Shown: positions 21,892 to 48,784, numbered from the stretch's first letter. The stretch: 48,784 nucleotides of DNA from an uncultured SAR86 cluster bacterium (GCA_902528485.1 CABZTA010000004.1:1-48784); one strand, 5' to 3'. Notes: generated by a model not told the origin, from the letters alone. Program-made: numbers and translations.

Positions 21892-22689
21892 TTAGTCAAC
21901 AATAGCGCCTAAAGAACTTGCAAACTCTCCATTCTTTGGGAAATGGGCTGATAACCCAGAAAATGAAATCCATCTTTTTAGAACACTCTTATATAAGTCA
22001 TATTGAGGCGTTCTACCAACAATATAAATAAGCTCGCAATTGCATGCCGCCGCAGTCGCAGAAGCCATCCTGGCAACAGTCTGACCAACTAAATTCATTA
22101 TTGCGGCAGTTCTATCTGCTTTCCCAGATTTGCTTCTGTATCTTACTTTTCCAAAATTTACAGCAGTTGCATCTTTAGGTAATTGACCTATGGGTCCTGA
22201 TACTACTTCGTTTAACAATAGATCTACCCTTTCAATTTTACCTATACTAGCAAGTTTATTAATTTCATTTGGATTATTAACATTGTTAATCAAGTTACTT
22301 AAACCGATAATAGTTCCTCCACCAACACCTGTTCCCCCCGCGTGAGAGGTCATTATGCCGTCACTCAATACAAATGCTGTTCCAGAACCGGAACTGATAA
22401 TTAGCTTTTTCTTATCATTTTTAGCCAGATAATTTGTTCCCTTACTGATCGCTTCTATTTCATTCGCATGTGATAGCTCAATTCCACCTATCTTTAAAGG
22501 TAAATCATAGTGCTTTCCACCTGTTACGCCTATGGAATCAATATCATCAAAATTAACCAGTTTATGGATTTGTTTTGAGATATTTTTAACTGATAACTTC
22601 TTAGAATCGAAAGATATAAACTTTGGCTTAGATTCATCTAGAATAGATAAATCCGTAAAACTAATGCCAAAATCAATACCTAATTTCAT
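21892..22689 (-). CDS. Type II (Fumble/CoaW-like) pantothenate kinase
   Basis: Likely start MKLGIDFG at 22689. Motifs GIDxG, VTGG, NEIEAISKG, GSGT, GGTGVGGGTIIGL, VDL and TAVNFGK parallel staphylococcal/eukaryotic type II PanK. Confidence 0.8.
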   Translation of the reverse strand: MKLGIDFGISFTDLSILDESKPKFISFDSKKLSVKNISKQIHKLVNFDDIDSIGVTGGKHYDLPLKIGGIELSHANEIEAISKGTNYLAKNDKKKLIISSGSGTAFVLSDGIMTSHAGGTGVGGGTIIGLSNLINNVNNPNEINKLASIGKIERVDLLLNEVVSGPIGQLPKDATAVNFGKVRYRSKSGKADRTAAIMNLVGQTVARMASATAAACNCELIYIVGRTPQYDLYKSVLKRWISFSGLSAHFPKNGEFASSLGAIVD

Positions 22690-22711
22690 TAATCTTTTGT
22701 ATTCATCATAC

Positions 22712-26334: not shown

Positions 26335-28080
26335 TCAAGTTTCAAAGAGTGAGGTTAATTGATCAAGCATAGCCCCTCCTAATTCTTCTGCTCTGTGTAT
26401 AGTGACTGCTTTTTTATAGTATCTTGTAACATCATGTCCGATACCTATCGCAATAAGTTCTGTCTCAGACGAAGTTTCAACTTTTTTGATAACATCTCTT
26501 AGATGAGTATCTAGATAATTAGTAGAATTGGTTGATAATGTACTGTCATCAACTGGTGCACCATCTGAAATAACCATTAATATTTTTCTTTGCTCAGGTC
26601 TTTTATTAAGTCTGTTTTGAGCCCATAACAAAGCTTCACCATCTACATTTTCTTTTAAAAGCCCTTCTCTGAGCATTAGTCCTAGATTTTTTCTTCCTCG
26701 TCTCCAAGCCTGATCGGCAGGTTTAAAGATTATGTGTCTTAAGTCATTTAAGCGTCCTGGATTAGGGATTTTGCCTTGCTCTAACCATAACTTTCTGGAG
26801 TCTCCACCTTTCCAGTGCTTGGTTGTAAATCCAAGGATTTCTGTCTTTATGTTGCATCTATTCAGTGTGCTGCCAATGATATCAGCACATATGGCTGCAG
26901 TAGTCATTGATCTTCCTCTCATAGATCCAGAGCTATCAACCAAAATAGAAACAAGGGTGTCTTTAAACTCTGAGTCTTTTTCAATTTTGAAACTCAGCGG
27001 AGTAAGAGGATCTACGATAATTTTGTGAAGCTTGCTAGGATCGAGTTGGCCCTCCTCTTTATCAAATTCCCAAGATCTATTTTGTTGAGCTAATAATAAT
27101 CTTTGGAGTCTATTAGCTAATTTTGCTATAGCATTTTTACTAGATTCCATTAATTGATCTAACCTTCCTCTTAGCCTAGATAACTCATCTGAATCACATA
27201 ATTCTTCTGCCTTTACTTCTTGGTCAAAATCTTTTGTATAAACTTTATATTCTTGTTCTCCTACTTTTTTAAGGAGTTCTTCTAATTTCGATCTATTTTC
27301 AATCCAAGAATCTTCATCAGCATCAACTTCTCCTTCTTCAATATCCATTTCTTCATCCTCAACGGATGTATCTTGTTCATCACTTTGACCATCTTCTGAA
27401 TCAGTTTCTTCTTCCTCTTCTTGATTTTCTTCTTCGTCAGAATCATCCTCGTTTTCTTCATCGTTATTCTCGTCATCTTCTTCATTAGGCTTTTCCTCAT
27501 CAACACTTATCTCAAGGTCCTTGAGTAAAGAAAAGATGATTTTTGAAAAGTCCAAAGAGCTATCTAAAGAGTCTTCTAACTGCCCTAAGTATTTGTCTTG
27601 AAAAGTGATAAGTTTTTCATAGAGATCTTCAAATTTTTTTGAATCAGGACGACTTATATCTTGTCCAAGAAGCTTAGATCGTAGCCAATGAGAGATGGCT
27701 AGAGAAGAAGAGTCTTCATTAGCGTCCAAAGAATTAATATTTTTCTGAAAAAGAAATTTTAGGTTTTTCGAAACTCCAAGAAACTTTTTTGAGCCTAAAA
27801 GTTCGACCCTAGTAAGATCTAGGTCCTTGATGATTTCATTCACTTTTGTATCGCTATGAGCAAATAAATCATTTCCTGAATATTTATTTATCAAAGCAAC
27901 TTGATCAGACTTTGCTCTTAGATCAATAAAGTTTTTAATTGGTTGGAGCGGTTCTGGCAGGGAACTTTGCCTTAAATTTTCTATTCCAAAATTTACATTC
28001 AATTCTAAATCTTCAGAAATAGCTTTAGCCGACGCTGCAAGAGCATCCTTTATGGTTTGTTTATCAGATTTCTCTAACAA
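26335..28080 (-). CDS. cobT: CobT-like protein (VWA/MIDAS domain, acidic linker)
   Basis: [75 protein letters not shown]. Confidence 0.92.
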
Positions 28081-28083
28081 AAT

Positions 28084-29070
28084 TTAATTGGATTCTGAGC
28101 TCAAGGAACTTTTGGTCTCAGCACCAAAACATCTCTGAAAATATTCTGAAATAATTGGTCTTTCAGTTTCATCTGACTTATTTAGAAAACTAAGCTCGAA
28201 TGATTTAACCAAATCCTCAAAAATAGAATAATTTTCTGCCCAACTAATTACAGTTCTTGGTGACATCAATGTTGATATGTCTCCACTCTCGAAGCCTTTT
28301 CGCGTTAAATTAGCTAGCCTTATCATATTTAGAACGATTTCTTTACCTTCATTATTGTCTAATTCTTTTACTTTTGAGAGGATAACCTTTTGTTCAAGCT
28401 CCTCATCTAAATAATTTAAAACTGAAACAATTTGCCATCTGTCCATCTGCCCCTGATTTATTTGCTGAGTGCCATGATAGAGGCCAGTGCTATCTCCCAA
28501 ACCTACAGTGTTTGCAGTCGCAAATAATCTAAAATATGGATTAGGAGTTAAAACTCTGTTTTGATCTAGTAAGGTTAATTTTCCCTCGGCTTCAAGTATT
28601 CTTTGTATGACAAACATCACATCTGGTCTTCCAGCATCGTATTCATCAAAAACCAATGCAACCGAATTTTGTATTGCCCATGGAAGTATACCTTCTACAA
28701 ATTTTGTTAATTGCTTCCCATCTTCAATGACAATTGCATCTTTGCCTAATAAGTCCAATCTACTGATGTGACTATCTAGATTAATTCTGACACAAGGCCA
28801 ATTTAATCTAGAAGCTACTTGTTCAATATGGGTAGACTTACCAGAACCATGTAAACCTTGAATCATCACTCTACGATTATGAGAAAAACCTGCAAGAATT
28901 GAGAGAGTTGTATCTTTATCGAAACAATAATCCGGATCAAGGGCAGGAACATACTCGCTAGATTCAGAATAGGCTGGCACCTCAAGCTTGGAGTCAAAAC
29001 CAAAGGTATTTCCAACGCTAACCTTAATATCAGGAATAGCGCTAAGATTTTGGGAAGTTGAAATTGTCAT
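28084..29070 (-). CDS. cobS: CobS-like AAA+ ATPase
   Basis: GLHGSGKSTHIEQVA, DEYDAGRPDVMFVIQR, TANTVGLGD, GTQQINQGQMDRW, MSPRTV. Confidence 0.94.
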   Translation of the reverse strand: MTISTSQNLSAIPDIKVSVGNTFGFDSKLEVPAYSESSEYVPALDPDYCFDKDTTLSILAGFSHNRRVMIQGLHGSGKSTHIEQVASRLNWPCVRINLDSHISRLDLLGKDAIVIEDGKQLTKFVEGILPWAIQNSVALVFDEYDAGRPDVMFVIQRILEAEGKLTLLDQNRVLTPNPYFRLFATANTVGLGDSTGLYHGTQQINQGQMDRWQIVSVLNYLDEELEQKVILSKVKELDNNEGKEIVLNMIRLANLTRKGFESGDISTLMSPRTVISWAENYSIFEDLVKSFELSFLNKSDETERPIISEYFQRCFGAETKSSLSSESN

Positions 29071-29160: not shown

Positions 29161-29946
29161 ATGAATGCCGTAGATAAAAATATATGGACAAAGCTTCAAT
29201 CCGAGGCTGAAGACTATATAAAACTTAATAAAGATTATAAAGACTTTTTGGAGTCTTTGGTTCTATCTAATGACGATTTTATTTCTTCTATTAGCCTAAA
29301 ACTATCAAGAGACTTATCTCAGTCATGGTCTTTTTCTGATAAAAAATTGTATACAAGTATTTTAAAGGCCCTGAATATTGCAGATATTTCAAAAGCCATT
29401 GAGATGGATCTTAATGCAGTTATTTCCAGAGACCCTGCAACAAATACCGTCTTAGAAACTTTCTTATTTTCTAAAGGATTCTCAGCTTTGCAAGCATATA
29501 GGGCATCTAATTATCATTGGAAAGACCAAGATCTATTGTCTTATTTTCTTCAAAGCAGGAGTTCACAAGTTTATGGCGTAGACATACATCCTGCTGCTTC
29601 CATTGGAAAAGGGATTATGCTTGATCATGCTACTGGAATAGTAATTGGAGAAACTTCAGTGATCGAGGATGATGTCTCTATATTTCAAGGAGTAACTCTT
29701 GGTGGGACAGGAAAAGAGATAGGAGATAGACATCCTAAAGTTAGGAAGGGAGTCTTAATTAGTTCAGGAGCTAAAATCTTAGGTAATGTTGAAATAGGTG
29801 AGGGAGCAAAAATAGCTGCCGGTAGCGTAGTTCTAGATGATGTTCCTGAGCATATGACTGTGGCAGGTGTTCCAGCAAAAGTAGTTGGTAAGACTTCGAT
29901 GAAAACCCCTGGGACTGAAGTAGATCACACAATTGAGGAAAATTAA
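29161..29946 (+). CDS. cysE: Serine O-acetyltransferase
   Basis: RDPA, KGFSALQAYR, VDIHPAA, LDHATGIVIGET, TLGGTGK, DRHPK, GVPAKVVG. Confidence 0.96.
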   Translation: MNAVDKNIWTKLQSEAEDYIKLNKDYKDFLESLVLSNDDFISSISLKLSRDLSQSWSFSDKKLYTSILKALNIADISKAIEMDLNAVISRDPATNTVLETFLFSKGFSALQAYRASNYHWKDQDLLSYFLQSRSSQVYGVDIHPAASIGKGIMLDHATGIVIGETSVIEDDVSIFQGVTLGGTGKEIGDRHPKVRKGVLISSGAKILGNVEIGEGAKIAAGSVVLDDVPEHMTVAGVPAKVVGKTSMKTPGTEVDHTIEEN

Positions 29947-30833
29947 TGTCATCACAGAAAAGTTTAGATGATTTGGTCCAGACTCTTAACCTAGAAAAGT
30001 TGGAAGAGAATCTTTTCCGAGGTGAATGTGAAAAAACAGCATGGGGTAGAGTTTTCGGCGGCCAAGTTTTGGGCCAGGCCTTAAGTGCAGCATATAACAC
30101 TATTGAAGAGGAAAGGTATGCTCATTCATTTCATGCCTATTTTTTAAGACCAGGAAGAATAGATATTCCTATTGTTTATCAAGTAGTAAGAATAAGAGAT
30201 GGAGGGAGTTTTACAACGAGAACAGTCGATGCAATTCAAAACGGTGAAGCAATTTTTAATATGTCTGTTTCTTTTCAAAAGGACGAAGGTGGCTTTGAGC
30301 ATCAATTTGATATGCCTGATGTTCCTGGGCCTGAAGAACTTAAAAGTGAGAGAGAATTACGAGAGTCTATGATGGATCAAATTCCTGAAGAGTACAGGGA
30401 TGGATTCTTGAGAGAGAAAGCAATCGAATTAAGAACAGTTGAGCAATTCAATCCATTGAACAGTGAAAAAAAACCTCCTTACAAACATACTTGGATGAAG
30501 GCAAATGGAAATCTGCCGGATGATATTCTTGTTCATCAAAACATACTGGCATACGCATCAGATTTTGGATTGCTGAGTACAGCACAACTTCCGCACGGTA
30601 TCGGTTGGGGAGGTATGAACAGAAAAGTTATGGCAGCGAGCATTGATCATGCCATGTGGTTTCATAGACCTTTCAGAACAGATGAATGGTTGTTATATGT
30701 CACAGATAGCCCGAGCGCGAGCAATGCAAAAGGTTTTAATAGAGGAAGCGTTTACACTCAGGACGGAATATTGGTAGCTTCAGCTATTCAAGAAGGATTA
30801 ATGAGAAGGATAGACTCAGATTACTCTAAATAA
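29946..30833 (+). CDS. tesB: Acyl-CoA thioesterase II
   Basis: VFGGQVLGQAL, HSFHAYFLRPG, RDGGSFTTR, YASD, SIDHAMWFH, QEGL. Confidence 0.94.
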   Translation: MSSQKSLDDLVQTLNLEKLEENLFRGECEKTAWGRVFGGQVLGQALSAAYNTIEEERYAHSFHAYFLRPGRIDIPIVYQVVRIRDGGSFTTRTVDAIQNGEAIFNMSVSFQKDEGGFEHQFDMPDVPGPEELKSERELRESMMDQIPEEYRDGFLREKAIELRTVEQFNPLNSEKKPPYKHTWMKANGNLPDDILVHQNILAYASDFGLLSTAQLPHGIGWGGMNRKVMAASIDHAMWFHRPFRTDEWLLYVTDSPSASNAKGFNRGSVYTQDGILVASAIQEGLMRRIDSDYSK

Positions 30834-32272: not shown

Positions 32273-35200
32273 TCAACTCACTTTTAATTTCTTTTCCTTC
32301 ATTTCTATCATGACCCTCTTATAATCAGTTGGCATTACTTTGACAAAGCTATCTAATGCACTATTCCAACCATTAAGAATTTTAGTTGCTATTGCTGAAT
32401 CAGTATATTTCTTATGATTATTAATTAATTGCTTAAGCTCTTTCAAATCTTCTTCATCTTCTAAATTTTCAAGCTCAAAGGTGCTGGTGTTACATTTTTT
32501 CTTGAATAGTTTTTTTGGATCATAAACATATGCAACACCTCCGCTCATCCCGGCACCAAAATTTCTGCCTGTTTCTCCGAGAATTACAGCTACTCCTCCT
32601 GTCATATATTCGCAGCCATGATCTCCAATGCCCTCAACTACAACCTTTGCTCCACTATTTCTTACACAGAATCTTTCTGCTGCAATTCCTCTAAAATATG
32701 CTTCACCTCCAGTGGCTCCGTATAAAGCGACATTTCCAAGAATAATATTCTCTTCAGCTAGAAAACTAGATTCTTTGTCAGGGTAGATTATGATTTTTCC
32801 ACCCGAGAGACCCTTTCCAACATAGTCATTGGCATCTCCCTCCAGTTCTATAGTCATTCCCTTACAACTCCATGCCCCAAGACTTTGTCCAGCAGACCCA
32901 TTTAATTTCAAGTAAATAGAATCTTCTGGCAAACCATTATTTTCCCAAACTTTCGATATTTCGTTAGATAGGATCGTTCCGAAAACCCTATCGGTATTTC
33001 CAATTTCTTGTTCTATTTTTATCTTTTTTCTGTTGAGTATGCTTGGTTTTATTTTTCTCAGCAGTTTAAGATCTAAAGATTCTTCGAGATTATGATTTTG
33101 ATCTTGAGTCTTATATACATCAGTATTTTTAAAAACCTTTTCAGCAGGAGTTAAAACATTTGATAAATCAATTCCATCTTTTTTCCAATGGTTAATGGCA
33201 GTGTCCAACTCAAGCAAATCAACTCTGCCAATCATTTCATTAAGAGTCTTGATGCCTAACTTAGCCATTATCATTCTCAATTCTTTTGCAACCATAAATA
33301 GGTAATTTACGACATTCTCAGGTTTGCCTTTGAACTTCTCTCTTAGATCCTTATCTTGTGTTGCTATACCTACAGGACAGGTATTTAGGTGGCACTTTCT
33401 CATCATGATACAGCCCAAGGTAACCAAAGGTGCAGTTGAGAAGCCAAACTCTTCAGCCCCCAAAATTGCAGCTATTGCAACATCTCTTCCCGTTTTTAAT
33501 TGACCATCTGTTTGCAGGACTACTCTTGATCTTAGATTATTCATTACTAGAGTTTGATGTGTCTCGGCAATACCTAACTCCCACGGAAGTCCTGCGTGCT
33601 TGATGGAAGTTAATGGAGAGGCTCCTGTTCCCCCATCGTGACCTGCTATAACTAAATGGTCAGTTTTAGCTTTAACGACCCCAGCTGCAATTGTGCCAAC
33701 TCCTATTTCAGAGACCAATTTCACACTTATTCTAGCTTTTCTATTTGCATTTTTAAGATCATGGATAAGTTGAGCTATATCTTCAATGGAATAAATATCG
33801 TGATGCGGGGGAGGGCTAATCAATCCTACACCAGGAGTGGAATGCCTGATTCTTGCAATATATTGATCCACTTTCTTGCCAGGTAATTCACCGCCTTCTC
33901 CAGGTTTTGCTCCTTGAGCTATTTTTATTTGTAGCTCATCAGAATTAGTCAGGTACCACATCGTGACCCCGAATCTTCCAGAGGCAACTTGTTTTATTGC
34001 AGATCTCTTAGACCTTCCATCTTTTAAAGGCTTAAACCTAACTGGATCCTCTCCTCCTTCACCAGTATTGGATTTGCCCCCAAGCTCATTCATAGCCAAA
34101 GCAAGTGACTCATGAGCTTCAGTTGAAATTGATCCCAAAGACATAGCTCCTGTAGCGAATCTTTTTACTATTTCTTTTTCCGACTCAACCTGATCGAGAG
34201 GTATACCTTTTTTTGGATATTTGAACTTCATCAAACCTCTGAGAGTACTATTTCTTGTAGTTTGTTCATTGGCATGATTAGAAAATTCCCAATATTTAGT
34301 CTCATCATTAGCCTGAGAAGCCAATTGCAATGAGGAAATTGATTTAGGATCCCACATATGAGAATCACCCCCATTACGCCAATGGAAATCTCCAGGATTT
34401 GGAAGAACTGAAACTTTATTTTGATCATATTCTGGGTAACCTATAGAGTGCCTTCTTTCAACTTCATCTGCCAATACATCAAAATTAACCCCTTGTACCC
34501 TACTGGTAGTTCCAGGGAAACAAAGTTTTATTATTTCTTCTGCCAATCCAACAGCTTCAAATATTTGAGCACCTTTATATGATTGAAGAGTAGAAATACC
34601 CATCTTAGCCATAACCTTTAACATACCTTTTGCAACACCCTTTTTGTATGCATTTACAAGATCTGAAGAACTTTTCAGATTTTCATCTTGCAGGATGCCA
34701 TCGTCTAGAGATTTCTCTAATACATCAAATGCTAAGTAAGGATTAATGGCATCTGCGCCATAGCCTATCAGAAGGCAATGATGGTGAACTTCTCTTGCTT
34801 CACCTGATTCAACTATCAATCCAAGTTGAGTTCTTTTCTCTTTTTTAACTAGATAATGATGAATTGATGAGCAAGCAAGCAATGAACTAATAGCGATTCT
34901 ATCTTTTGATAATTCACGATCAGATAGCAGCACAAATGAATAGCCTTGTTTTATTGCATCTTCTGAATCTCTACAAATTCTCTTCAGAGCTTTTCTTAAG
35001 CCTTTTGATCCGCTCCCTCTCTCGTAAGTAATATCGATAATCTTGGTTTTCCATCCAAAGGCGCTTAATTTTTTTATACTTTCGAGCTCTTGATTCGAAA
35101 GAATTGGATGTTTTAATCTTAATCGATGAGCATTTTTTTCTTGGGATTCTAGTAAATTACTTTCAGGACCGATTAAGCATTCAAGCGACATAATCACTTC

Positions 35201-36832
35201 TTCCCTGATTGAATCAATTGGAGGATTAGTAATTTGGGCAAAGAGTTGTTTGAAGTAGTCGTAAATCATTCTAGGCTTGTCAGATAAACAGGCTAAGGCA
35301 GCATCATTTCCCATTGAACCGAGAGGATCCCTCAGCTCTGTTACAAGAGGCAGAAGCATGAATTCAAGGGTTTCCGTTGTATAACCAAAGGACTGCATTC
35401 GTGAGATCAGATCTTCCTTAGAAGATTTGACTTTATATTTTTTAAGATCTTGCAGATCTACAATTTGGTTATTTATCCAATTACGGTAAGGATGTTTATT
35501 TGAAATATTTTTTTTGATTTCCTCATCAGGAATCATTCTTCCCTTCTCAAAGTCAATTAGAAACATTTTTCCTGGTTGCAGCCTACCTTTTGAAAGAACC
35601 TTAGATTGATCAACTGGGAGGACTCCTACCTCTGATGCCATGATGACTTTGTCATCATCTGTAACATAGAATCTGCTTGGTCTGAGACCATTTCTATCTA
35701 AGACTGCTCCAACATAATTACCGTCAGTAAACACAATCGAAGCAGGTCCATCCCAAGGCTCCATGAATGAAGACGAGTATTCATAAAAAGCCTTTTTTGC
35801 TGAACTCATTTCATTATCGTTTTGCCATGCTTCAGGAATCATCATCATTGCTGCTTCTGTAAGTTCTCTTCCAGACATAATTAAAAGCTCCAGAACATTA
35901 TCGAAAGATCCCGAATCTGAGCAGTCTGGTTCAGCAATAGGAAACAACTTTGTAATTTTTGAACCAAAGTATTCACTTTTTGCTAGACCTTGTCTGGAAT
36001 ACATTTGATTCATATTTCCCTTAAGTGTATTTATTTCACCGTTATGGCACATATACCTGTTTGGCTGAGCTCTGTCCCAAGAAGGAAATGTATTGGTACT
36101 GAATCTTGAATGAACCATTGCAAGGTGAGTTTCAAACTTTTTATGTTCTAAATCTGGATAAAAAGGGAAAAGTTGTGCAGGAGTCAACATTCCTTTATAA
36201 GCAATTAGTCTCGAAGACAAAGTACATGCATAAAACATAAAGGATTGTTTTAAATTTTCCTCGTATCTCAAGCGCTTAGTAAAAATTTTTCTGATCAAGT
36301 AAAGTTTTCTCTCAAATGCGTCTTGATCTAGTTTCGATGCTCTTTGGATAAAAATTTGTTGAATTTCAGGTTGGCAGTCTAATGCAGCTGGACCAACGTT
36401 TGCCTTTTTAGGATTAACCGGTACTTTTCTCCATCCTAAAAATTTTTGACCCTCTGATTTTATTATTTCTTCGACTACTTTTTTGCAATATGATCTTTCC
36501 TTTCTGTCTTGAGGAAGGAAAATATTCCCAGTAGCGTAACTCCCAAAAGCAGGAAGATTTATTTTGATTTTTTTTGCTTGTTCCTGGAAAAAAGAATCTG
36601 GTAGAGCCATAAGAATCCCAGCTCCATCACCAGTGTTTTCCTCAAACCCACATCCACCTCTATGGTCCATCCTAGAGTTGATTAAATAGGCATCATCCAT
36701 AATCTCTCTAGAGGGGATGCCTTTAATATTAGCAACTAAGCCGACGCCACAAGAGTCTTTCTCACTATTTGGGTCGTAAAGTCCAATTTTTTTAGGACGT
36801 TCTAGTAATTTATTTTCTTTATCTTCTACCAT
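32273..36832 (-). CDS. gltB: Glutamate synthase large subunit
   Basis: DSCGVG Ntn cysteine, HSRFSTNT, EPWDGPA, KQVASGRFGV, CIMMRKCHLNTC, GDHGCEYMTGG. Confidence 0.98.
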   Translation of the reverse strand: MVEDKENKLLERPKKIGLYDPNSEKDSCGVGLVANIKGIPSREIMDDAYLINSRMDHRGGCGFEENTGDGAGILMALPDSFFQEQAKKIKINLPAFGSYATGNIFLPQDRKERSYCKKVVEEIIKSEGQKFLGWRKVPVNPKKANVGPAALDCQPEIQQIFIQRASKLDQDAFERKLYLIRKIFTKRLRYEENLKQSFMFYACTLSSRLIAYKGMLTPAQLFPFYPDLEHKKFETHLAMVHSRFSTNTFPSWDRAQPNRYMCHNGEINTLKGNMNQMYSRQGLAKSEYFGSKITKLFPIAEPDCSDSGSFDNVLELLIMSGRELTEAAMMMIPEAWQNDNEMSSAKKAFYEYSSSFMEPWDGPASIVFTDGNYVGAVLDRNGLRPSRFYVTDDDKVIMASEVGVLPVDQSKVLSKGRLQPGKMFLIDFEKGRMIPDEEIKKNISNKHPYRNWINNQIVDLQDLKKYKVKSSKEDLISRMQSFGYTTETLEFMLLPLVTELRDPLGSMGNDAALACLSDKPRMIYDYFKQLFAQITNPPIDSIREEVIMSLECLIGPESNLLESQEKNAHRLRLKHPILSNQELESIKKLSAFGWKTKIIDITYERGSGSKGLRKALKRICRDSEDAIKQGYSFVLLSDRELSKDRIAISSLLACSSIHHYLVKKEKRTQLGLIVESGEAREVHHHCLLIGYGADAINPYLAFDVLEKSLDDGILQDENLKSSSDLVNAYKKGVAKGMLKVMAKMGISTLQSYKGAQIFEAVGLAEEIIKLCFPGTTSRVQGVNFDVLADEVERRHSIGYPEYDQNKVSVLPNPGDFHWRNGGDSHMWDPKSISSLQLASQANDETKYWEFSNHANEQTTRNSTLRGLMKFKYPKKGIPLDQVESEKEIVKRFATGAMSLGSISTEAHESLALAMNELGGKSNTGEGGEDPVRFKPLKDGRSKRSAIKQVASGRFGVTMWYLTNSDELQIKIAQGAKPGEGGELPGKKVDQYIARIRHSTPGVGLISPPPHHDIYSIEDIAQLIHDLKNANRKARISVKLVSEIGVGTIAAGVVKAKTDHLVIAGHDGGTGASPLTSIKHAGLPWELGIAETHQTLVMNNLRSRVVLQTDGQLKTGRDVAIAAILGAEEFGFSTAPLVTLGCIMMRKCHLNTCPVGIATQDKDLREKFKGKPENVVNYLFMVAKELRMIMAKLGIKTLNEMIGRVDLLELDTAINHWKKDGIDLSNVLTPAEKVFKNTDVYKTQDQNHNLEESLDLKLLRKIKPSILNRKKIKIEQEIGNTDRVFGTILSNEISKVWENNGLPEDSIYLKLNGSAGQSLGAWSCKGMTIELEGDANDYVGKGLSGGKIIIYPDKESSFLAEENIILGNVALYGATGGEAYFRGIAAERFCVRNSGAKVVVEGIGDHGCEYMTGGVAVILGETGRNFGAGMSGGVAYVYDPKKLFKKKCNTSTFELENLEDEEDLKELKQLINNHKKYTDSAIATKILNGWNSALDSFVKVMPTDYKRVMIEMKEKKLKVS

Positions 36833-36863
36833 CGATAATATTCCATCCTTCCTATTAGAAAGA

Positions 36864-36922
36864 TGCGTTCCTTCGGTTTTAATTTTTTACCTACTTCCGT
36901 CCTTTAAATAAGGATGAACGAT
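36864..36922 (-). ncRNA. glnA-motif (class I glutamine) riboswitch aptamer in the gltB 5' UTR
   Basis: Minus-strand RNA AUCGUUC-A-UCCUU AUUUA AAGGA-C-GGAAGUA-GGU AAAAAAUUAAA ACC-GAAG-GAACGCA. It shows P1 CGUUC/GAACG, P2, an E-loop (GGAAGUA/GAA) and P3, as in the glnA RNA motif, about 30 nt upstream of a nitrogen-assimilation gene. Confidence 0.85.
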
Positions 36923-41640: not shown

Positions 41641-42492
41641 TTATTTAGTTATCCAGGTTCCAACACCTTTGTCAGTAAGTATTTCAACTAAAACTGCATG
41701 CGGTACTCTACCATCGACGATATGGGCACTTTTCACGCCGCTTTCTAGACTTTTAATCACTGATGAGAGTTTTGGAAGCATTCCTCCTTTTATGTTTTTA
41801 GCAATTTTTTTGGCTTTTTTGATATTCATTTCAGATATTTTTTTCCCTGTGTTAGTCAACACTCCTTTTACATCCGTCATCATAATTATCTTTTCAGCTC
41901 TTAATTTTTCAGCAACCTTGCAAGCCACATGATCAGCGTTAATATTGTAATGCATTCCAAATCTATCCCTGCCAATTGGAGCAATTACAGGAATTTTTCC
42001 ATTAAAAATATTTTTCTTAATTAAATTTCCATCAACTTTTGTGATATCACCGACAAAACCAAGATTCATCTTTGTTTTAATTTTTTTACAGATAAGAATA
42101 CTTTCTCTAACGTCATTGAATGTTTTTGTCTTTGCTCCCCAAGTTTTGATCAGTTCAGCAATATCTCCGTTTACTTCTCTGAGAGTTTTAATAATGATTT
42201 TTATTGAATTTTCGTCTGTTTTTCTAAGACCATCAATAAAAACACTTTTAATATTGCTCTTCTTCAAATTTCTTTCAATTTGTGGACCGCCTCCATGAAC
42301 AAGAACAGGAAATATTCCAATTTGCCTCATCAAAGCGATATCTCTTGCAAAATTTTGCCTTAACTTACTTTCTTTCATGGCGCTTCCACCATACTTAATG
42401 ACCACTATCTTTCCTGAAAACTTTTGTATATAGGGCAATGCCTCACTGAGGATCTTTGCAAGTGATTCTGCTGATTTGCTATCTTTGATCAT
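41641..42492 (-). CDS. argB: Acetylglutamate kinase
   Basis: EALPYI, VIKYGG, VHGGGPQI, NINAD, GGMLPK, DGRVPHAVLVEI. Confidence 0.96.
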   Translation of the reverse strand: MIKDSKSAESLAKILSEALPYIQKFSGKIVVIKYGGSAMKESKLRQNFARDIALMRQIGIFPVLVHGGGPQIERNLKKSNIKSVFIDGLRKTDENSIKIIIKTLREVNGDIAELIKTWGAKTKTFNDVRESILICKKIKTKMNLGFVGDITKVDGNLIKKNIFNGKIPVIAPIGRDRFGMHYNINADHVACKVAEKLRAEKIIMMTDVKGVLTNTGKKISEMNIKKAKKIAKNIKGGMLPKLSSVIKSLESGVKSAHIVDGRVPHAVLVEILTDKGVGTWITK

Positions 42493-43871
42493 TAAAAATT
42501 TGTTTTGATCGTATTATCCACTTTTGAAATAGCTTTTTTAAATACATTTTTTATTTGATCTAAATCTTTAGATGTATTTCCTTCAAATCTCAAAACCAAG
42601 TTTGGTGAAGTATTTGATGCTCTAATAAGGCCCCAGCTAGAATCTTTATCTATTCTAATTCCATCTAGGGAGCTAATTTCTCCATTTTCCTTCTCCAGTA
42701 TTTTTATTAGTTTACTTATTATTGAAAACTTATTTTCATCTGAGACAGATATATTTATCTCAGGAGTCGATAAATTTTGAGGCAGTTCAGAGAAGATTAC
42801 TGATGAACTTTCTTCTTTTTCTGACAAAATTTCCAACATCCTACTTCCAGCGTAAATAGCATCATCGAAACCGAACCATCTGTCATTAAAGAAAATATGC
42901 CCACTCATTTCTCCTGCTAAAAGTGCATTCTTTTCAAAAAGATTTTTCTTTATATAGGAGTGGCCGGTTTTTGACATATAAGCTATGCCAGAGTTTTCTT
43001 CTATGAAATTTTTTAAAAGGTTAGAACATTTAACGTCAAAAATGATTGTGGCATTCTTATTTTTCATTAACACTTGATCCGCATACAGAATCATTTGAAT
43101 ATCCGGGTAGATAATTTTCCCTGAGTTATCAACAATTCCAACTCTATCCGCATCACCATCCAAGGCTATACCAATATCGGCATTTGATTCTTTTATTTTT
43201 TTCTGTAAATCTTCAAGATTCATTGGATTGCCAGGATCAGGATGATGATTTGGAAAGTTTCCATCTACTTCGCTGAAAAGTTCTATAACTTCACAACCAA
43301 TCTCTTTAAATGCCTGTGGCGCAATCACTCCTCCAACGCCATTTCCACAATCAAGACAAATCTTCATGGGTCTTTTTAATGAGATATTTTTTCTAAGCTC
43401 GTCAATATATTCATCCAAAACATCTCTCTCCTCCAAATGACCTTTTTTGATATCTTTCAAGTATGTGCCTTGGAGTATGTAATTTTTAATTTCTTGAATT
43501 TCTTGCCCAAAGATAGTTTTACCTCCCAAAATTATTTTAAAACCATTGTATTCTTTGGGGTTGTGGCTACCCGTGATCATAACTCCATTCTTAGTTTTGA
43601 ATTTCTCGACCGCAAAATAAAGCAAGGGTGAGGGCACCATACCCACATTTATGACGTTTACGCCATTTTCTAAGAAGGAGTTAATCAAGGCTGAGCAAAT
43701 TCTTTCACCAGACAATCTTCCATCGCGTGCCACAGCTACTTGCTTTAAACCTAATTTTTTAATTTGATGACTTAAAGCTGATCCCAATGCGCTAACAAAT
43801 TCATCGCTCAGGTCCTCAGATGCAATACCTCTGATATCATATGCTCTAAAAATATTTTGATTAATTTGCAT
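42492..43871 (-). CDS. algC: Phosphomannomutase/phosphoglucomutase
   Basis: FRAYDIRG, TGSHNP phosphoserine loop, DGDADR metal loop, GEMSGH, RASNT. Confidence 0.94.
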   Translation of the reverse strand: MQINQNIFRAYDIRGIASEDLSDEFVSALGSALSHQIKKLGLKQVAVARDGRLSGERICSALINSFLENGVNVINVGMVPSPLLYFAVEKFKTKNGVMITGSHNPKEYNGFKIILGGKTIFGQEIQEIKNYILQGTYLKDIKKGHLEERDVLDEYIDELRKNISLKRPMKICLDCGNGVGGVIAPQAFKEIGCEVIELFSEVDGNFPNHHPDPGNPMNLEDLQKKIKESNADIGIALDGDADRVGIVDNSGKIIYPDIQMILYADQVLMKNKNATIIFDVKCSNLLKNFIEENSGIAYMSKTGHSYIKKNLFEKNALLAGEMSGHIFFNDRWFGFDDAIYAGSRMLEILSEKEESSSVIFSELPQNLSTPEINISVSDENKFSIISKLIKILEKENGEISSLDGIRIDKDSSWGLIRASNTSPNLVLRFEGNTSKDLDQIKNVFKKAISKVDNTIKTNF

Positions 43872-43888
43872 TTGGTTCTAATTTAGAT

Positions 43889-44827
43889 ATGGATACTTCA
43901 AAAGGCCTCGAAAATATAGAAGGCGTTGTATGGTTTGACGGTCAGTATGTTGACTGGAAAGATGCCAAAGTTCATGTTTTAACTCATACTCTTCATTACG
44001 GATTAGGTGTATTTGAAGGTGTTAGAGCTTATTCTACCACGCAAGGACCAACGATTTTCCGTCTTAGGGACCACACAGATCGCCTTTTTGAATCTGCAGA
44101 AACAGTAAAATTAAAAATTCCTTATTCAAAAGACGAAATAAATAAAGCTCAAATAGAAGTTGTAAAAAAAAATAAATTAGAAGAAGCCTACATAAGGCCT
44201 ATGTGTTTCTATGGCTCTGAAGGTTTAGGACTAAGGGCTGATAATCTCAAAGTTCATTGTATTGTCGCTGCTTGGTATTGGCCAAGCTACCTTTCTCCAG
44301 AGCTTTATGAGAAAGGAATCAAAGTAAAACTATCATCCTACACAAGGCAAAGAGGAAATAAAGTTTCGAGATCAAAAGTTAACGGGAACTACGTCAATTC
44401 AATTGTTGCTCTAAATGAAGCTCTTGAAGCGGGTTTTGATGAAGCATTAATGTTAGATACAGAAGGAAATGTCGCTGAAGGTTCTGGAGAAAACTTTTTT
44501 ATGGTGAAAGATGGGAAAATATTCACTCCTGATGTTGAGGCCTCACTTAATGGCATTACAAGAAAAAGCATAATTGACTTGGCTAAAAATGAAAAAATTG
44601 ATGTCATTGAAAAGAAAATATCTCCGGAAGAGATTATTCAGTCAGATGAACTTTTTTTTACCGGAACTGCAGCAGAGGTATTACCAATTACACATGTTGA
44701 TAAAAATAAAATATCAGATGGACAAAGAGGACCTATTACCAAGATTCTTCAATCAAAATACTCCAGTCATGTGAAAGGAGAGAATATTTTATTTCCTGAA
44801 TGGTTAACTAATATTTCTGATCATTGA
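43889..44827 (+). CDS. ilvE: Branched-chain amino acid aminotransferase
   Basis: LHYGLGVFEG, YIRP, SKVNGNY (PLP lysine), EGSGEN, LNGITR, GTAAEV. Confidence 0.96.
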   Translation: MDTSKGLENIEGVVWFDGQYVDWKDAKVHVLTHTLHYGLGVFEGVRAYSTTQGPTIFRLRDHTDRLFESAETVKLKIPYSKDEINKAQIEVVKKNKLEEAYIRPMCFYGSEGLGLRADNLKVHCIVAAWYWPSYLSPELYEKGIKVKLSSYTRQRGNKVSRSKVNGNYVNSIVALNEALEAGFDEALMLDTEGNVAEGSGENFFMVKDGKIFTPDVEASLNGITRKSIIDLAKNEKIDVIEKKISPEEIIQSDELFFTGTAAEVLPITHVDKNKISDGQRGPITKILQSKYSSHVKGENILFPEWLTNISDH

Positions 44828-45780
44828 AAATTTTGATCATAAAAACCTCTTCTCTGGGAGATATAATTCATTCTTTTCCAGCTATAGAGGATATAAAGAA
44901 GAATTATCCTGAATCTAGAGTAGATTTTCTAGTGGATAGTACATTTCTCAATACGGCAAAATTAAATAAGTCTATAGATCATTTTTTTCCAATTTCATTG
45001 AGAGAAAAGAAAAATCAATCTTTAATGAAAAGACTCAAGAATTTGAATGATGAAATAAATGCGTCTTTTAAAAATATCACTTATGACTTTGTAATTGATT
45101 TTCAAGGATTGATGAGAACTCAAATCATAGGATCAAAAATCAAAAAAATATCTAGTGCCAAAAACTTTATTGGATATGAATTTAGTTCAGCAAAGGAAGG
45201 ACTTTTAACTTTTTTATACGACAAAAGAATTAATGTAACTAAGGATGAACACGCAGTAATCAGAATGAAAAAATTAGCAGCTGAAAGTTTAAATTATGAG
45301 CTAAACAAAGAGCATGACTATGGTTTTAAGCTAGAAGGCTTGGATAAAAAAAATAAGATCATTTTTGTTCACGGATCGAGTAGAAGAAATAAAGAATATC
45401 CCTTAGATTATTGGAAAATATTGGCTGATCACTTAAACAATCTCAATTTAGATATTTGCGTACCTGTCCATGGAGAGAATCAATTAAATTTCTTTAAAGA
45501 AATAAATGAAATTAATTCTAGGGCCATTAAGTTAGAAACTGATAATTTTCATGAGATCAAAGAAGAGTTTGTTAAATGTTCATTTTTTATAGGAGTTGAT
45601 ACAGGTCTTACTCATCTATGCGCAGGATTAGGATTATCTGGAATTTTTTTATTTGGACCTACGGATCCATCAAAAGTAGGACCTGTTTTTAATCATCAAA
45701 GAGTGATCAAGAAATCAGAAATGACTGAAATAAATCCTTCTCTAATTATTGAGATGCTTAAAGAAGAAAGTTTTGAGTAA
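44824..45780 (+). CDS. waaC: Lipopolysaccharide heptosyltransferase I (GT9)
   Basis: KILIIKTSSLGDIIH, IDFQGL, HAV, GVDTGLTHL, LFGPT; follows ilvE as in Pseudomonas-type waa loci. Confidence 0.82.
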   Translation: MKILIIKTSSLGDIIHSFPAIEDIKKNYPESRVDFLVDSTFLNTAKLNKSIDHFFPISLREKKNQSLMKRLKNLNDEINASFKNITYDFVIDFQGLMRTQIIGSKIKKISSAKNFIGYEFSSAKEGLLTFLYDKRINVTKDEHAVIRMKKLAAESLNYELNKEHDYGFKLEGLDKKNKIIFVHGSSRRNKEYPLDYWKILADHLNNLNLDICVPVHGENQLNFFKEINEINSRAIKLETDNFHEIKEEFVKCSFFIGVDTGLTHLCAGLGLSGIFLFGPTDPSKVGPVFNHQRVIKKSEMTEINPSLIIEMLKEESFE

Positions 45781-47032
45781 AGAAAAACTAAAAATTGGTC
45801 TGATAACTTATAGAGGTAATCCTTCTTCAGGGGGTCAAGGTATTTACATAAACTATCTAAGTAGAGCTCTATCGGATCTAGGCCATGAAGTTACCGTTAT
45901 TTCTGGCCCTCCCTATCCAGAAATAAGAAAAGATATCAAACTAGTTAAAATACCTAGCCTTGATTTATTTTCAAAAAAAAATAAGTTTTTTGACGTTAAA
46001 TTTTCAAAATTATTATCTTTGAATAACTTGAAAGAATGGATTAGCGCAAACACTGGCGGCTTTCCTGAGCCACATACTTTTGGACCAAGACTGAAGAAAT
46101 TTATTGAAGAAAATGCTGATCAATTTGATGTAATTCATGACAACCAATCTTTGTGTAAAGAGCTTATTTCTCTTCAGCAGAAACTTCCTTTAGTAACAAC
46201 AATTCATCACCCAATTACAAAAGATTTAGAATTTCAGCTGAAAAGTACAAATGATTTTTTTTTAAAACTCCTCATCAAAAGATGGCACTCATTTATTCCA
46301 ACTCAAATAAAGGTTGCAAAAAAATTAAAAAAAATTCTTGTTCCCTCTAAATCATCTGAGAAAGATGTCATTAAAGATTTTTCGTTGAAGGAAGCAAGTA
46401 TTGAAGTTGTTTATAATGGCATAGATTTAAGTTTCTTCTATCCTTCCGAAAAGCCTTATGAGGAATACAAAATATTATCCATAGCAAGCTCAGACGTACC
46501 GATGAAAGGTTTAGATTATATGATCAAAGCTTTTCCAAAAATCAAAAAAAATTATCCAAAGGCTAAATTGAGTGTTTTAGGAAAAATAAGAGAGGAGGGA
46601 CACACAGAAAGACTAATAAATAGTTTAGATTTTAAAGATGATATAAATTTTGTATCAGGTCTATCTCATTCAGAATTAAGAGAACAATATTGCTCATCTC
46701 ATGTAGTAGTTATTCCTTCCTTGTATGAAGGTTTTGGATTTGCTGCTGCAGAAGCAATGGCTTGTGGAGTTCCTGCAGTGGTATCCGATGGCGGATCTTT
46801 AAAGGAAATCATTGGAGAGGCAGGAAAGGTCATTATCCCTGGAGATGAAAATGCTATCGTTGATGCTGTAAATGAATTATTTTCTTCAAAAGATTTAAGA
46901 AAAAACATTGTAGCCAATGGTATATCAAGAGTTAAAGATAAATTTACGTGGCACAATGCTGCTTTAAAACTAGAAAATATTTATCAACAAATGATAGTGA
47001 ATCATGCAAACAATAAATATTCAAAAACTTAA
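45773..47032 (+). CDS. GT4 glycosyltransferase, resembling actinobacterial ManT-type alpha-mannosyltransferase
   Basis: YRGNPSSGGQGIY...LSRAL...GHEVTVISGPPYP, PSLDL, GFPEPHTF, DVIHDNQSL, TIHHPIT and PSLYEGFG..AAEAMACG. Start probably TTG 45773, overlapping the waaC stop; the ORF track start is 45749. Confidence 0.85.
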   Translation: MSKEKLKIGLITYRGNPSSGGQGIYINYLSRALSDLGHEVTVISGPPYPEIRKDIKLVKIPSLDLFSKKNKFFDVKFSKLLSLNNLKEWISANTGGFPEPHTFGPRLKKFIEENADQFDVIHDNQSLCKELISLQQKLPLVTTIHHPITKDLEFQLKSTNDFFLKLLIKRWHSFIPTQIKVAKKLKKILVPSKSSEKDVIKDFSLKEASIEVVYNGIDLSFFYPSEKPYEEYKILSIASSDVPMKGLDYMIKAFPKIKKNYPKAKLSVLGKIREEGHTERLINSLDFKDDINFVSGLSHSELREQYCSSHVVVIPSLYEGFGFAAAEAMACGVPAVVSDGGSLKEIIGEAGKVIIPGDENAIVDAVNELFSSKDLRKNIVANGISRVKDKFTWHNAALKLENIYQQMIVNHANNKYSKT

Positions 47033-47708
47033 TCTTTCTGATAATGCAAAAATTCTTGATCTTGGTTGTGGAGAAGGTCGGCATTGTTTTGGCGCATACA
47101 TGCATGCGAATATAGATGTTTATGGTTTTGACTTAAATCCAAAGGATGTTCAGAAAGCTGTAAGTAATTTTCCACAATTCGATGAAAAATCTAATATTAA
47201 AAGTTGCAATTTTGGATGTACTGATGCAACAAAACTTCCTTTTGCTGACGAGACTTTTGATTACTTGATTTGCTCTGAGGTACTAGAGCATATTCCAGAG
47301 GTTGATTGTGCAGTTGATGAAATTATTAGAGTTACCAAGCAAAAAGGTAAAATTGCCGTAAGTGTTCCTTCTTTTTTTCCAGAATGGGTTTGCTGGTCTC
47401 TTAGTAAAGATTACCAATTAACACCAGGTGGACATGTAAGGATTTTTAAATACAAACAATTAAGAAAAATGATTGAGGATAGGAATTGCAAATTTATAGA
47501 GAAACATCGTGAACATGCACTTCATAGTCCGTATTGGTGGTTAAAATGCTTATTTTGGAAGAACCAAGACAATTCATACTTAGTAAATAAATATCATGAC
47601 TTTCTTGTGTGGGATATGATGAAAAAACCTTTCATAACAAGACTTCTAGAAAAAATACTGCAACCTTTGATTGGTAAAAGCACAGTTATTTATTTTGAAA
47701 AAAATTAG
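47004..47708 (+). CDS. Class I SAM-dependent methyltransferase (Methyltransf_11-like)
   Basis: LDLGCGEGRH, LPF, SEVLEHI, VSVP..FPE..CW.LS, GGHVRI, HALHSPYWWLKC, LVWD, IGKS. Confidence 0.88.
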   Translation: MQTINIQKLNLSDNAKILDLGCGEGRHCFGAYMHANIDVYGFDLNPKDVQKAVSNFPQFDEKSNIKSCNFGCTDATKLPFADETFDYLICSEVLEHIPEVDCAVDEIIRVTKQKGKIAVSVPSFFPEWVCWSLSKDYQLTPGGHVRIFKYKQLRKMIEDRNCKFIEKHREHALHSPYWWLKCLFWKNQDNSYLVNKYHDFLVWDMMKKPFITRLLEKILQPLIGKSTVIYFEKN

Positions 47709-47717
47709 AATCTTATT

Positions 47718-48713
47718 TTGAAATCTTTATCTGGGTTAAATCATCTTTTGGAATATATTACCGAGAGTCAAAATGAAGGGGGGGGAATTCCTTCAGAGAC
47801 AGGGAAAATTCTTGATCCTTGGGATCATATTGAATGCTGCATGGCTTTGGATGTATTTGGAGAAAAAGAAAGATCATCGCTAGGCTTCCAATGGCTTATT
47901 GATCATCAAGAGGATGATGGATCATGGTATTCAGAGTATCAAGCAGACAAAAATATTTCTTCTAGAAAAGAATCGAACTTCTCTTCGTATATTGCAATTG
48001 GAGCACTACATAATTACGAGAGCTATAAAGATTTAAAATTCTTAGAAAACCTGCTTCCAACTCTTGAAAAGTCTCTTGAGTTTACTCTCTCAGCCCAAAC
48101 TGATTTTGGTGAATTCTCTTGGGCTATGGAAAATGGAAAATGGCTAGATGATGCTTTAAAAACAGGTAATTCATCGATCTACATGAGCTTGAAAGCTTAT
48201 AAAAAAATTTTTGATCTGTTAGGTAAGAATTCTAATCAAATAGAAAGTTCACTCACAGCTCTAAAAAAAGTTTTTTTAACTAACACATCTAGATTTGATA
48301 GGAATTGGGATTCAAAAGAAAGATACAGTATGGATTGGTACTATCCGATTTTGGCAGGAATTTATGATAAATCAGAAGCCATTAAAAAAATTAATTCCAA
48401 ATGGGACATTTTTATCAAAGAAGAGTTTGGTTGTAGATGCGTCAGTGATAGGCCATGGATTACTGTGGCTGAAACATCGGAACTAATAATAACGCTAAAT
48501 AAAATAGATGAAATAAAAAAAGCCAGGGATCTATTTAAAAAAGTAAGCGAATTAAAAGATCCCAAAGATAATATCTTTTGGATGGGCTATGTTTTTGATG
48601 ATAGGAAATATTGGCCAACTGAAAAACCTACTTGGACTGCTGCAGCTTTTATTCTTGCAGCGAATGCATTAAATGGATTTACTTCGGCAGGTGACTTTTT
48701 TAAGAATTTGTAG
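47718..48713 (+). CDS. (alpha/alpha)-barrel protein usually auto-annotated 'prenyltransferase'; MmpH-like putative glycoside hydrolase
   Basis: DPWDHIECCMAL, QEDDGSW, YIAIG, RYSMDWYYP, PWITVAETSE, FWMGY, WPTEKPTWTAAA; third gene of the GT4-MTase cassette. Confidence 0.72.
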   Translation: MKSLSGLNHLLEYITESQNEGGGIPSETGKILDPWDHIECCMALDVFGEKERSSLGFQWLIDHQEDDGSWYSEYQADKNISSRKESNFSSYIAIGALHNYESYKDLKFLENLLPTLEKSLEFTLSAQTDFGEFSWAMENGKWLDDALKTGNSSIYMSLKAYKKIFDLLGKNSNQIESSLTALKKVFLTNTSRFDRNWDSKERYSMDWYYPILAGIYDKSEAIKKINSKWDIFIKEEFGCRCVSDRPWITVAETSELIITLNKIDEIKKARDLFKKVSELKDPKDNIFWMGYVFDDRKYWPTEKPTWTAAAFILAANALNGFTSAGDFFKNL

Positions 48714-48714
48714 T

Positions 48715-48783
48715 CTAAATTTTTTTTAATATTCCTAAAGTTTCATATAGTTCCATGAATTTAAATTGCTTTGTTTCCTTCAC
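48715..48783 (-). CDS. C-terminal fragment of a convergent gene, possibly a MeT1-like (Methyltransf_24) O-methyltransferase
   Basis: Minus-strand frame open from the window edge reads VKETKQFKFMELYETLGILKKI-stop (TAG 48717-48715), ending next to the upstream gene's stop. Only 22 aa are visible, so identity rests on weak resemblance plus context. Confidence 0.4.
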   Translation of the reverse strand: MKETKQFKFMELYETLGILKKI

Positions 48784-48784
48784 A

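Follow-up and report, generated by a model that had tools for sequence, protein, structure and literature searches.

Methylmannose polysaccharide (MMP) has so far been regarded as an oddity of mycobacteria and a few of their relatives, linked to an unusual lipid metabolism. In the mycobacterium M. hassiacum its genes run, by locus tag, as ManT (MHAS_04402), pMeT3 (MHAS_04403), MmpH (MHAS_04404) and MeT1 (MHAS_04405), and the hydrolase MmpH is reported to cut 3-O-methylated alpha-1,4-mannan only (PMC9883506). The binding of acyl-coenzyme A (acyl-CoA) or fatty acids by MMP is a role that has only been proposed, for mycobacteria (PMC9883506). An acetylated MMP is known from Streptomyces griseus, and acyl-CoA binding has also been proposed for the other polymethylated alpha-1,4 polysaccharide of the mycobacterial cytoplasm, 6-O-methylglucose lipopolysaccharide (MGLP), which MmpH does not cut (PMC9883506). 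Unlike MMP, MGLP is made from glucose by different genes, and no window protein was matched to an MGLP enzyme. The published survey covered mycobacteria and eight related actinobacteria, and the main text of that report does not contain the words 'proteobacteria', 'phylum', 'phyla', 'archaea' or 'Gram-negative' (PMC9883506). Here we describe a counterpart of this gene cluster in an uncultured SAR86 cluster bacterium, a marine gammaproteobacterium. The window, i.e. the whole stretch of DNA that was analyzed, is the entire 48,784-base contig GCA_902528485.1 CABZTA010000004.1:1-48784, from an assembly of 0.89 Mb (60% complete) that holds nothing past position 48784. A search with a SAR86 FISH probe gave no site at up to two mismatches, and comparison by eye shows four mismatches between the region and a related probe. 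An earlier reading made from the sequence alone (the sequence-only reading) had proposed an MMP-like cluster at its 3' end and had stated that no such polymer is known to be described in Proteobacteria; in agreement with that statement, a full-text literature search, judged by titles and the beginnings of abstracts and with most subscription journals outside its cover, found no MMP-type cluster or polymer outside Actinobacteria. Its family matches, reciprocal searches and gene order show the window cassette to be a genuine member of the MMP gene-cluster family.

Gene layout and protein families of the cassette

The 3'-terminal ~3 kb of the window carry three same-strand open reading frames (ORFs), which overlap or nearly abut, followed by the end of a convergent fourth gene (Table 1). 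The methyltransferase gene overlaps the GT4 glycosyltransferase gene by 29 nt, the barrel gene begins 10 nt past the methyltransferase stop, and the stop of the convergent MeT1-like gene is one base from that of the MmpH-like gene. The TTG that we take as the first GT4 codon, as did the sequence-only reading, lies across the stop of the GT9 gene before it, has a purine-rich stretch ahead of it, and agrees better with the ManT alignment than the start of the alternative longest ORF (TTG 45749, 427 aa). ORF calls and sequence identity in a sister genome confirm the coupled glycosyltransferase, methyltransferase and barrel genes with a convergent 3' end at 45773-48784 that the sequence-only reading had described, and every protein motif that it quoted is found in the translations: GGQGIY..LSR, GFPEPHTF and HDNQ in the GT4, GGHVRI and HALHSPYWWLKC in the methyltransferase, and DPWDHIE, SMDWYYP and WITVAETSE in the barrel protein. 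A promoter and terminator scan of 43500-48784 found no excess of sites over shuffled sequence (15 promoter-like sites against a shuffle mean of 21.5, and 3 terminator-like sites against 3.1).

Table 1. Coordinates of the cassette genes and of other features discussed (window positions unless a locus is named)
Feature	Position	Strand	Remarks
ManT-like GT4 glycosyltransferase (predicted)	45773..47032	+	419 aa from TTG 45773; Pfam Glycos_transf_1 and Glyco_transf_4
pMeT3-like class I S-adenosylmethionine-dependent methyltransferase, putative 3-O-methyltransferase	47004..47708	+	234 aa; Pfam Methyltransf_31/11/25
MmpH-like (alpha/alpha)6-barrel endo-hydrolase (predicted)	47718..48713	+	331 aa; no Pfam family; PDB 7qsj match
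MeT1-like 1-O-methyltransferase (predicted), 3' end (stop and last 22 codons; rest beyond contig end)	48715..48784	-	sister-genome identity
Lipopolysaccharide heptosyltransferase I (GT9, WaaC type), outside cassette	44824..45780	+	TIGR02193 230 bits, cut-off 185.3
Phosphomannomutase/phosphoglucomutase gene	42492-43871	divergent	
tesB	29946-30833		
acs	6086-8026		
NUDIX gene	3780-4640		
Type II (eukaryote/Staphylococcus-type) pantothenate kinase-like ORF	21892-22767	-	180 bits, below cut-off 234; adjoins 5S rRNA gene
PF01467+PF01050 fusion ORF	L129:11135-11884; L130:6777-7553		L129: own genome, contig C2, outside window

When all PDB sequences were searched with the GT4 (the 427-residue form), the best match was the ManT of M. 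hassiacum (7qsg), at E 2.7e-83 over residues 13-417 of 427; a gap of 60 orders of magnitude separates it from the runner-up, another GT4 at E 1.4e-22. We mapped by hand, onto the printed alignments, the ManT and MmpH residues that are named in the report on these enzymes (PMC9883506). Eight of the ten named ManT residues are identical in the window GT4 (G15, H142, K240, L291, E313, G314, F315 and E321), and two are changed (D293 to His307 and L317 to Phe331). The GT4 is thus best described as a ManT-type family member, with a predicted alpha-(1->4)-mannosyltransferase activity.

The only PDB match of the barrel protein, apart from one at E 0.93, is MmpH itself (7qsj, E 1.2e-63, residues 12-329). 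All 11 named MmpH residues are identical in the window protein: D47, W49, D50, N101, F102 and T163 correspond to D33, W35, D36, N87, F88 and T149, and M215, Y219, E262, E265 and W315 to M205, Y209, E252, E255 and W306. They include the catalytic residues reported for MmpH, namely D47/D50 as the acid and E262 as the base (PMC9883506), and D33, W35, M205, Y209, E252 and E255 are invariant among nine gammaproteobacterial homologues. The protein has no Pfam family, and among the NCBIfam models it matches only TIGR01577, at 24 bits against a cut-off of 820.7. As described for MmpH, it would share its fold class and the position of the catalytic base with the GH15 and GH125 families (clan GH-L) (PMC9883506); unlike these, with which sequence similarity is negligible, MmpH is endo-acting and has an extra subsite. 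We predict that the window barrel protein is a member of the MmpH-type endo-alpha-(1->4)-mannosidase family.

The methyltransferase between them has no close solved relative in the PDB (best match E 4.5e-9), and its identity was approached through the actinobacterial loci. Twenty loci were drawn from a sample of the class to which a Streptomyces carrier belongs, and all 20 have GT4, methyltransferase and hydrolase genes in that order, plus a MeT1-like gene. The hydrolases of two of them score 630 and 610 bits against 7qsj, which places these two loci in close relatives of M. hassiacum. The window methyltransferase and the one lying between manT and mmpH in the higher-scoring of the two (L137, the locus whose MmpH scores 630 bits) are reciprocal best hits, with E values of 2.3e-59 and 1.8e-59 and runners-up at 1.3e-8 and 1.1e-6. 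An alignment of pMeT3-like proteins holds 50 invariant columns in nine sequences from five phylum-level groups, the motifs GGH.RI and H.LH.P.WW..C among them, and both methyltransferase families of the cassette show about 60% mean column identity across Actinobacteria, Alpha- and Gammaproteobacteria and Desulfobacterota, the pMeT3-like set spanning the haloarchaeon described below as well. The window protein is accordingly predicted to be a pMeT3-type methyltransferase, the mycobacterial pMeT3 enzyme itself being putative only.

For the fourth gene, the 99%-identical sister genome G013, whose three cassette genes share 96-99% identity with those of the window, has the convergent gene complete. 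The 22 residues encoded at 48718-48783 on the minus strand are 100% identical to residues 184-205 of its product P0121, a protein of 205 aa from the same locus position with the Pfam domain Methyltransf_24 and without any NCBIfam family match. The only PDB match of P0121 is to 6g7d/6g80/6h40 (E 4.6e-40, residues 11-204), entries titled 'Methyltransferase domain protein' which we take to be structures of MeT1. We predict from these matches that the fourth gene encodes a MeT1-type reducing-end 1-O-methyltransferase. In one genus of the order (G040 and G052) the MeT1-like gene lies away from the hydrolase gene: at a distance of about 10 kb in G040, where a different 200-aa ORF comes directly after the hydrolase gene, and on a separate contig in G052.

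Because MHAS_04402 to MHAS_04405 run in that order, the window order ManT-pMeT3-MmpH-MeT1 is the same as that in mycobacteria. Together, the PDB matches, the reciprocal best hits and this order bear out the sequence-only reading in taking the cassette for the ManT, methyltransferase, MmpH and MeT1 families in their mycobacterial arrangement, and these comparisons show all four window genes to be orthologous to the mycobacterial MMP genes. The likeness comprises the same four families, MeT1 convergent as in most actinobacterial loci, full-length similarity at 35-42% identity and conserved catalytic residues. The window cassette differs from the mycobacterial cluster, however, in its host, which has a small, low-G+C genome and a lipopolysaccharide (LPS), in its LPS-core neighbourhood, in the His at the position of ManT D293, in the want of a canonical GDP-mannose pyrophosphorylase in most genomes of the order, and in that its sequences fall in a separate proteobacterial clade.

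Distribution, history and maintenance of the cassette

Within the order of the window's organism, the hydrolase was found in 59 of the 61 genomes (four families, 14 genera) and in 36 of the 37 high-quality genomes. The MeT1-like gene is present in 58 of the 61; of the other three, the window's own genome has only its tail, and two, which are 92% and 81% complete, are those that lack the hydrolase as well. Even samples drawn more widely, with the window's own genome counted in both, gave the hydrolase in 10 of 400 genomes of the class (one further genome being unscored) and in five of 401 genomes of the phylum. A search of 1.84 billion representative proteins returned 514 matches to the hydrolase at E <=1e-10 and 115 at E <=1e-30, and a pattern scan limited to a single genome for each species brought up at least 577 relatives. 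The locus survey covers the best 80 of these at least 577 relatives, which come from Halieaceae, Luminiphilus, Halioglobus, Cellvibrionaceae, Spongiibacteraceae, Microbulbifer, Simiduia and Pseudomaricurvus, and also from Parvibaculum, metagenome-assembled genomes (MAGs) of Syntrophaceae, Smithella and Desulfomonilia, Natrinema sp. 74 and Streptomyces. Cultured carriers include Halioglobus sp. Uisw_031, Microbulbifer aestuariivivens NBRC 112533, Simiduia aestuariiviva CECT 8571, Pseudomaricurvus hydrocarbonicus JCM 30134 and Seongchinamella sediminis U0301. GT4, methyltransferase and hydrolase genes are all present in 77 of the 80 loci, in tight order in 76 and gapped in one, the other three running into contig ends; a convergent MeT1-like gene lies downstream in 66 of the 80, in 44 of these within 400 nt. 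Followed beyond the window, as the sequence-only reading had suggested, the cassette is thus present across the order, in Halieaceae, in Cellvibrionales and in other non-actinobacterial lineages. On the actinobacterial side, the hydrolase occurs in 88 of the 301 genomes of the class sample (including one unpublished genome, G491). The chromosome of the haloarchaeon Natrinema sp. 74 (L072) carries GT4, methyltransferase and hydrolase genes in the same order, and its genome gave no MeT1-like match with the query used.

In a hydrolase tree of 111 sequences the Actinobacteria stand apart from all others (support 98). The sequences of the window's order group together (support 80), next to a group made up of the other Gammaproteobacteria, the Alphaproteobacteria and the archaeon, and Alphaproteobacteria and Desulfobacterota each form one group (support 100 and 99, respectively). 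Three sequences (L026, L024 and L023) have very long branches; one of them, the gammaproteobacterial L026, is placed among Actinobacteria, a placement that we treat as unreliable. The GT4 tree, built from 61 of 105 rows once these three had been left out and the three largest groups thinned to every other row, recovers the order (support 99) and the Actinobacteria (support 100), with the order beside other Gammaproteobacteria at a weak support of 75. The two trees therefore indicate that the cassette was not recently acquired from Actinobacteria; it seems to be of long standing and, within lineages, to have been inherited mostly vertically. The label 'actinobacterial-type', so far as it meant an import, is contradicted both by the breadth of the cassette in the order (59/61 genomes) and by the placement of its sequences there in a clade of their own, apart from the Actinobacteria (support 98 and 100 in the hydrolase and GT4 trees).

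The methyltransferase gene, the hydrolase gene and the 3' part of the GT4 gene are under purifying selection: NG86 estimates of dN/dS against eight of the 15 same-genus genomes fall between 0.065 and 0.107 for the methyltransferase, between 0.083 and 0.106 for the hydrolase, and between 0.075 and 0.142 for the GT4, of which the 3' 269 codons were compared. The G+C content of the cassette, 0.32-0.33, lies inside the range of the other protein-coding stretches of the window. The cassette stretch was found in marine and seawater metagenomes of several studies, and contigs from RNA libraries of four studies cover portions of all three cassette genes, among them a contig of 834 nt that spans the junction of the GT4 and methyltransferase genes and two perfect 151-nt pieces within the hydrolase gene. 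As such libraries can contain DNA, this cover is weak evidence and no proof of transcription, and the parts of the stretch that individual RNA runs leave uncovered have no bearing on expression.

The likely product and its alternatives

Taken together with what is reported for the mycobacterial enzymes, these data suggest that the cassette probably makes and maintains a cytoplasmic pool of manno-oligosaccharides, which would be short, linear, alpha-(1->4)-linked and O-methylated and would carry a methyl block at the reducing end. The MmpH-like hydrolase would cleave mature chains to defined fragments, the ManT-like GT4 would extend those fragments using a nucleotide-mannose donor, the pMeT3-like enzyme would methylate the newly added units, and the MeT1-like enzyme would cap the free reducing ends. 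What we infer in this explanation is which sugar is used, how it is linked and methylated, that primers are recycled, and that fatty acyl chains might be bound.

Several observations weigh against this proposal. The position of ManT D293, a residue proposed to contact guanine N2 (PMC9883506), is His in the window GT4 and T, H, N or E in most gammaproteobacterial homologues, Asp being retained in those of Streptomyces and Parvibaculum. A ManC-type GDP-mannose pyrophosphorylase (TIGR01479) scores above the cut-off in only five of the 61 genomes of the order, and a near-full-length match is present in 10, leaving 49 of the 59 carriers without one; in 42 of the 61 only the C-terminal cupin is matched, in ORFs of about 250-340 aa, and in nine there is no match. 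We inspected the PF00483 proteins of four genomes that are 93-97% complete (G016, G038, G042 and G045) and found them to be GalU, MurU-like proteins and GlmU, plus RmlA in G016 and one 346-aa CBS-fused protein in G042, with no GDP-mannose pyrophosphorylase candidate among those of G016, G038 and G045. Moreover, the cassette in this order is set among LPS-core genes, and the window's fourth gene is assembled for 22 codons only. Among the carriers checked outside the order, Halioglobus and Parvibaculum have ManC-type genes above the cut-off and the Syntrophaceae MAG and Natrinema have partial ones; the mycobacterium that was checked has no match to the TIGR01479 family. That most genomes of the order apparently lack the usual GDP-mannose enzyme hints at an undescribed donor pathway. 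One candidate for such a nucleotide-mannose route is a fusion of a PF01467 nucleotidyltransferase, whose best match is HldE domain II, to a PF01050 phosphomannose isomerase (PMI) cupin; in the two genomes that were inspected, the cupin-matched ORF has this architecture and a length of 249-258 aa (Table 1), and the one name given to its relatives in metagenomes is 'adenylyltransferase/cytidyltransferase family protein'. Next to the MurU-like gene of G016 lies a gene for an APH-family kinase.

The observations on the donor are those that would be expected if the same enzyme cycle made a chemically different polymer, an analogue of MMP built from a non-GDP mannose, glucose or heptose donor: most carriers in the order are without a near-full-length ManC, the nucleotidyltransferases of the nearly complete genomes are mostly other enzymes, the guanine-contacting Asp has become a variable position, and the HldE-like fusion could itself provide an unusual nucleotide-mannose. 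We nonetheless consider this unlikely, as the pocket residues of an enzyme with the reported specificity of MmpH (PMC9883506) are all identical here, the sugar-contacting ManT residues E313, G314, F315 and E321 are conserved, and the ~60% mean column identity that both methyltransferase families keep from Actinobacteria to Proteobacteria argues for one conserved substrate. Alternatively, the cassette might be a decaying or recently imported actinobacterial island without a role in its host, given that the characterized relatives are actinobacterial and that the family is rare in the wider class and phylum samples. The breadth of the hydrolase across the order, the open frames, dN/dS values of 0.07-0.14, a G+C content typical of the window and the position of the order as one clade within the proteobacterial sequences, apart from Actinobacteria, together make such an island barely conceivable.

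Another explanation, suggested by the neighbourhood, is a methylated mannan at the cell surface, either an extension of the LPS core or an O-chain-like polymer, which the cassette would build or trim. Terminal 3-O-methylmannose caps are found on the polymannans of E. coli O8 and Klebsiella O5. Oligotropha carboxidovorans has an O-chain of 3-O-methylmannose (PMC9883506), so that methylated mannose polymers do occur in Proteobacteria, and the window cassette adjoins LPS genes, its GT4 start overlapping the stop of heptosyltransferase I. The cassette comes after ilvE in all seven examined loci of the order, with GT9, waaG-like and WaaP-like genes upstream in four of the seven; hldE lies 3' of the MeT1-like gene in both loci that were scanned for it (L020, of the window's genus, and L022, of another family), a Kdo transferase gene follows the cassette in Luminiphilus, and an ABC-ATPase gene stands between the GT4 and methyltransferase genes in the gammaproteobacterial locus L025. 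However, the flanking genes vary by lineage, and the same cassette recurs in the same order in LPS-free organisms, i.e. mycobacteria, Streptomyces and a haloarchaeon. The surface polymannans are alpha-1,2/1,3-linked, lipid-linked and exported, whereas the 36 window ORFs scanned gave no ABC_tran domain, and the cassette shows no sign of the Wzm/Wzt-type exporter and membrane-associated chain terminator of an ABC-transporter-dependent O-polysaccharide locus. All four cassette proteins look soluble and, as none has a signal-peptide-like N-terminus or a 19-residue window with a Kyte-Doolittle value above 1.38, are probably cytoplasmic; a reducing-end 1-O-methyltransferase and an endo-hydrolase, moreover, suit a free rather than a lipid-linked polymer. 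We accordingly regard a surface polymer as quite improbable.

A broader picture may also be drawn, which we offer tentatively, as possible rather than probable: polymethylated mannose polysaccharides might be no actinobacterial speciality but an old and widespread cytoplasmic polymer, a core trait of an abundant, streamlined marine order and of OM60/NOR5-type and Cellvibrionales bacteria, with a non-canonical donor, a role not tied to type I fatty acid synthase and a place among the sources of sugar in seawater. Were this true, the polymer of the order would be fed through the fusion of HldE-like nucleotidyltransferase and PMI cupin, its role would be something other than the tuning of type I fatty acid synthase, e.g. 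the chaperoning of hydrophobic chains in lipid catabolism or in the cold, and it would add methylated sugars to the organic matter of seawater. The four-gene set is, in any case, a conserved core trait of an order of marine bacterioplankton that is found in cultivable Gammaproteobacteria and Alphaproteobacteria MAGs as well. This moves the question of the function of the polymer outside its mycobacterial setting, makes fast-growing, harmless carriers available for functional tests, and predicts an as yet unrecognized class of methylated oligosaccharides in the ocean.

Neighbouring genes and minor observations

Upstream of the cassette the window has the GT9 gene, which overlaps ilvE, and then the divergent phosphomannomutase/phosphoglucomutase gene (Table 1). 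A GT9 gene between ilvE and the GT4 gene is confined to the window's genus (L020 and L028), the other genera having other LPS-core genes or none at this place: in L022 a GT9, a second GT4 and a WaaP-type kinase gene intervene between ilvE and the cassette, and the ORFs of L029 are matched by size only. At the position that hldE occupies in L020 and L022, L028 has a 448-aa ORF. The Luminiphilus locus reads glnE-ilvE-hydrolase-cassette-Kdo transferase, and other lineages have unrelated flanks. An alpha/beta-hydrolase gene of the Hydrolase_4 type lies beside the cassette in the window's genus (L020:8148-9023), in a sister genus (L021:8471-9442) and in Luminiphilus (L034:2817-3644). The protein with the ABC-ATPase domain in L025 has 681 aa (L025:9755-11800).

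Streptomyces loci, which we consider alongside the acetylated MMP of S. griseus, resemble the window in having GT4, methyltransferase and hydrolase genes in the same order, with the MeT1-like gene about 4-6 kb downstream in most. No acyltransferase gene, on the other hand, adjoins the cassette of the window. A gene for a 240-aa hexapeptide-repeat acyltransferase directly follows it in Simiduia, Microbulbifer, Pseudomaricurvus and a Syntrophaceae MAG (L057:7740-8462, L064:7741-8463, L035:7945-8667 and L062:7099-7821), and in view of this gene an acetylated polymer may exist in those carriers and not in the window's organism.

The sequence-only reading had further taken CoA-related genes near the cassette as fitting an acyl-CoA-buffering polymer. 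The genes themselves are there, as tesB, acs, a NUDIX gene and a weak match to type II pantothenate kinase (Table 1); the link to the cassette fails, as a distance of 15-42 kb and the rRNA operon lie between, and none of the four kinds is among the neighbours within ~8 kb of the cassette in the loci of 10 relatives. We therefore rejected this neighbourhood as support, the conserved neighbours being instead ilvE, LPS-core genes and hldE.

Two other features of the window stand apart from the cassette. A CobT-like and CobS-like pair (26335-29070 and 25126-26277, both on the minus strand) lies beside an AurF-like di-iron oxygenase gene, with no further cobalamin genes seen in the window. A glutamine riboswitch (RF01739, 65.3 bits) occupies 36862-36922 on the minus strand, directly upstream of the gene for the large subunit of glutamate synthase (32273-36832).

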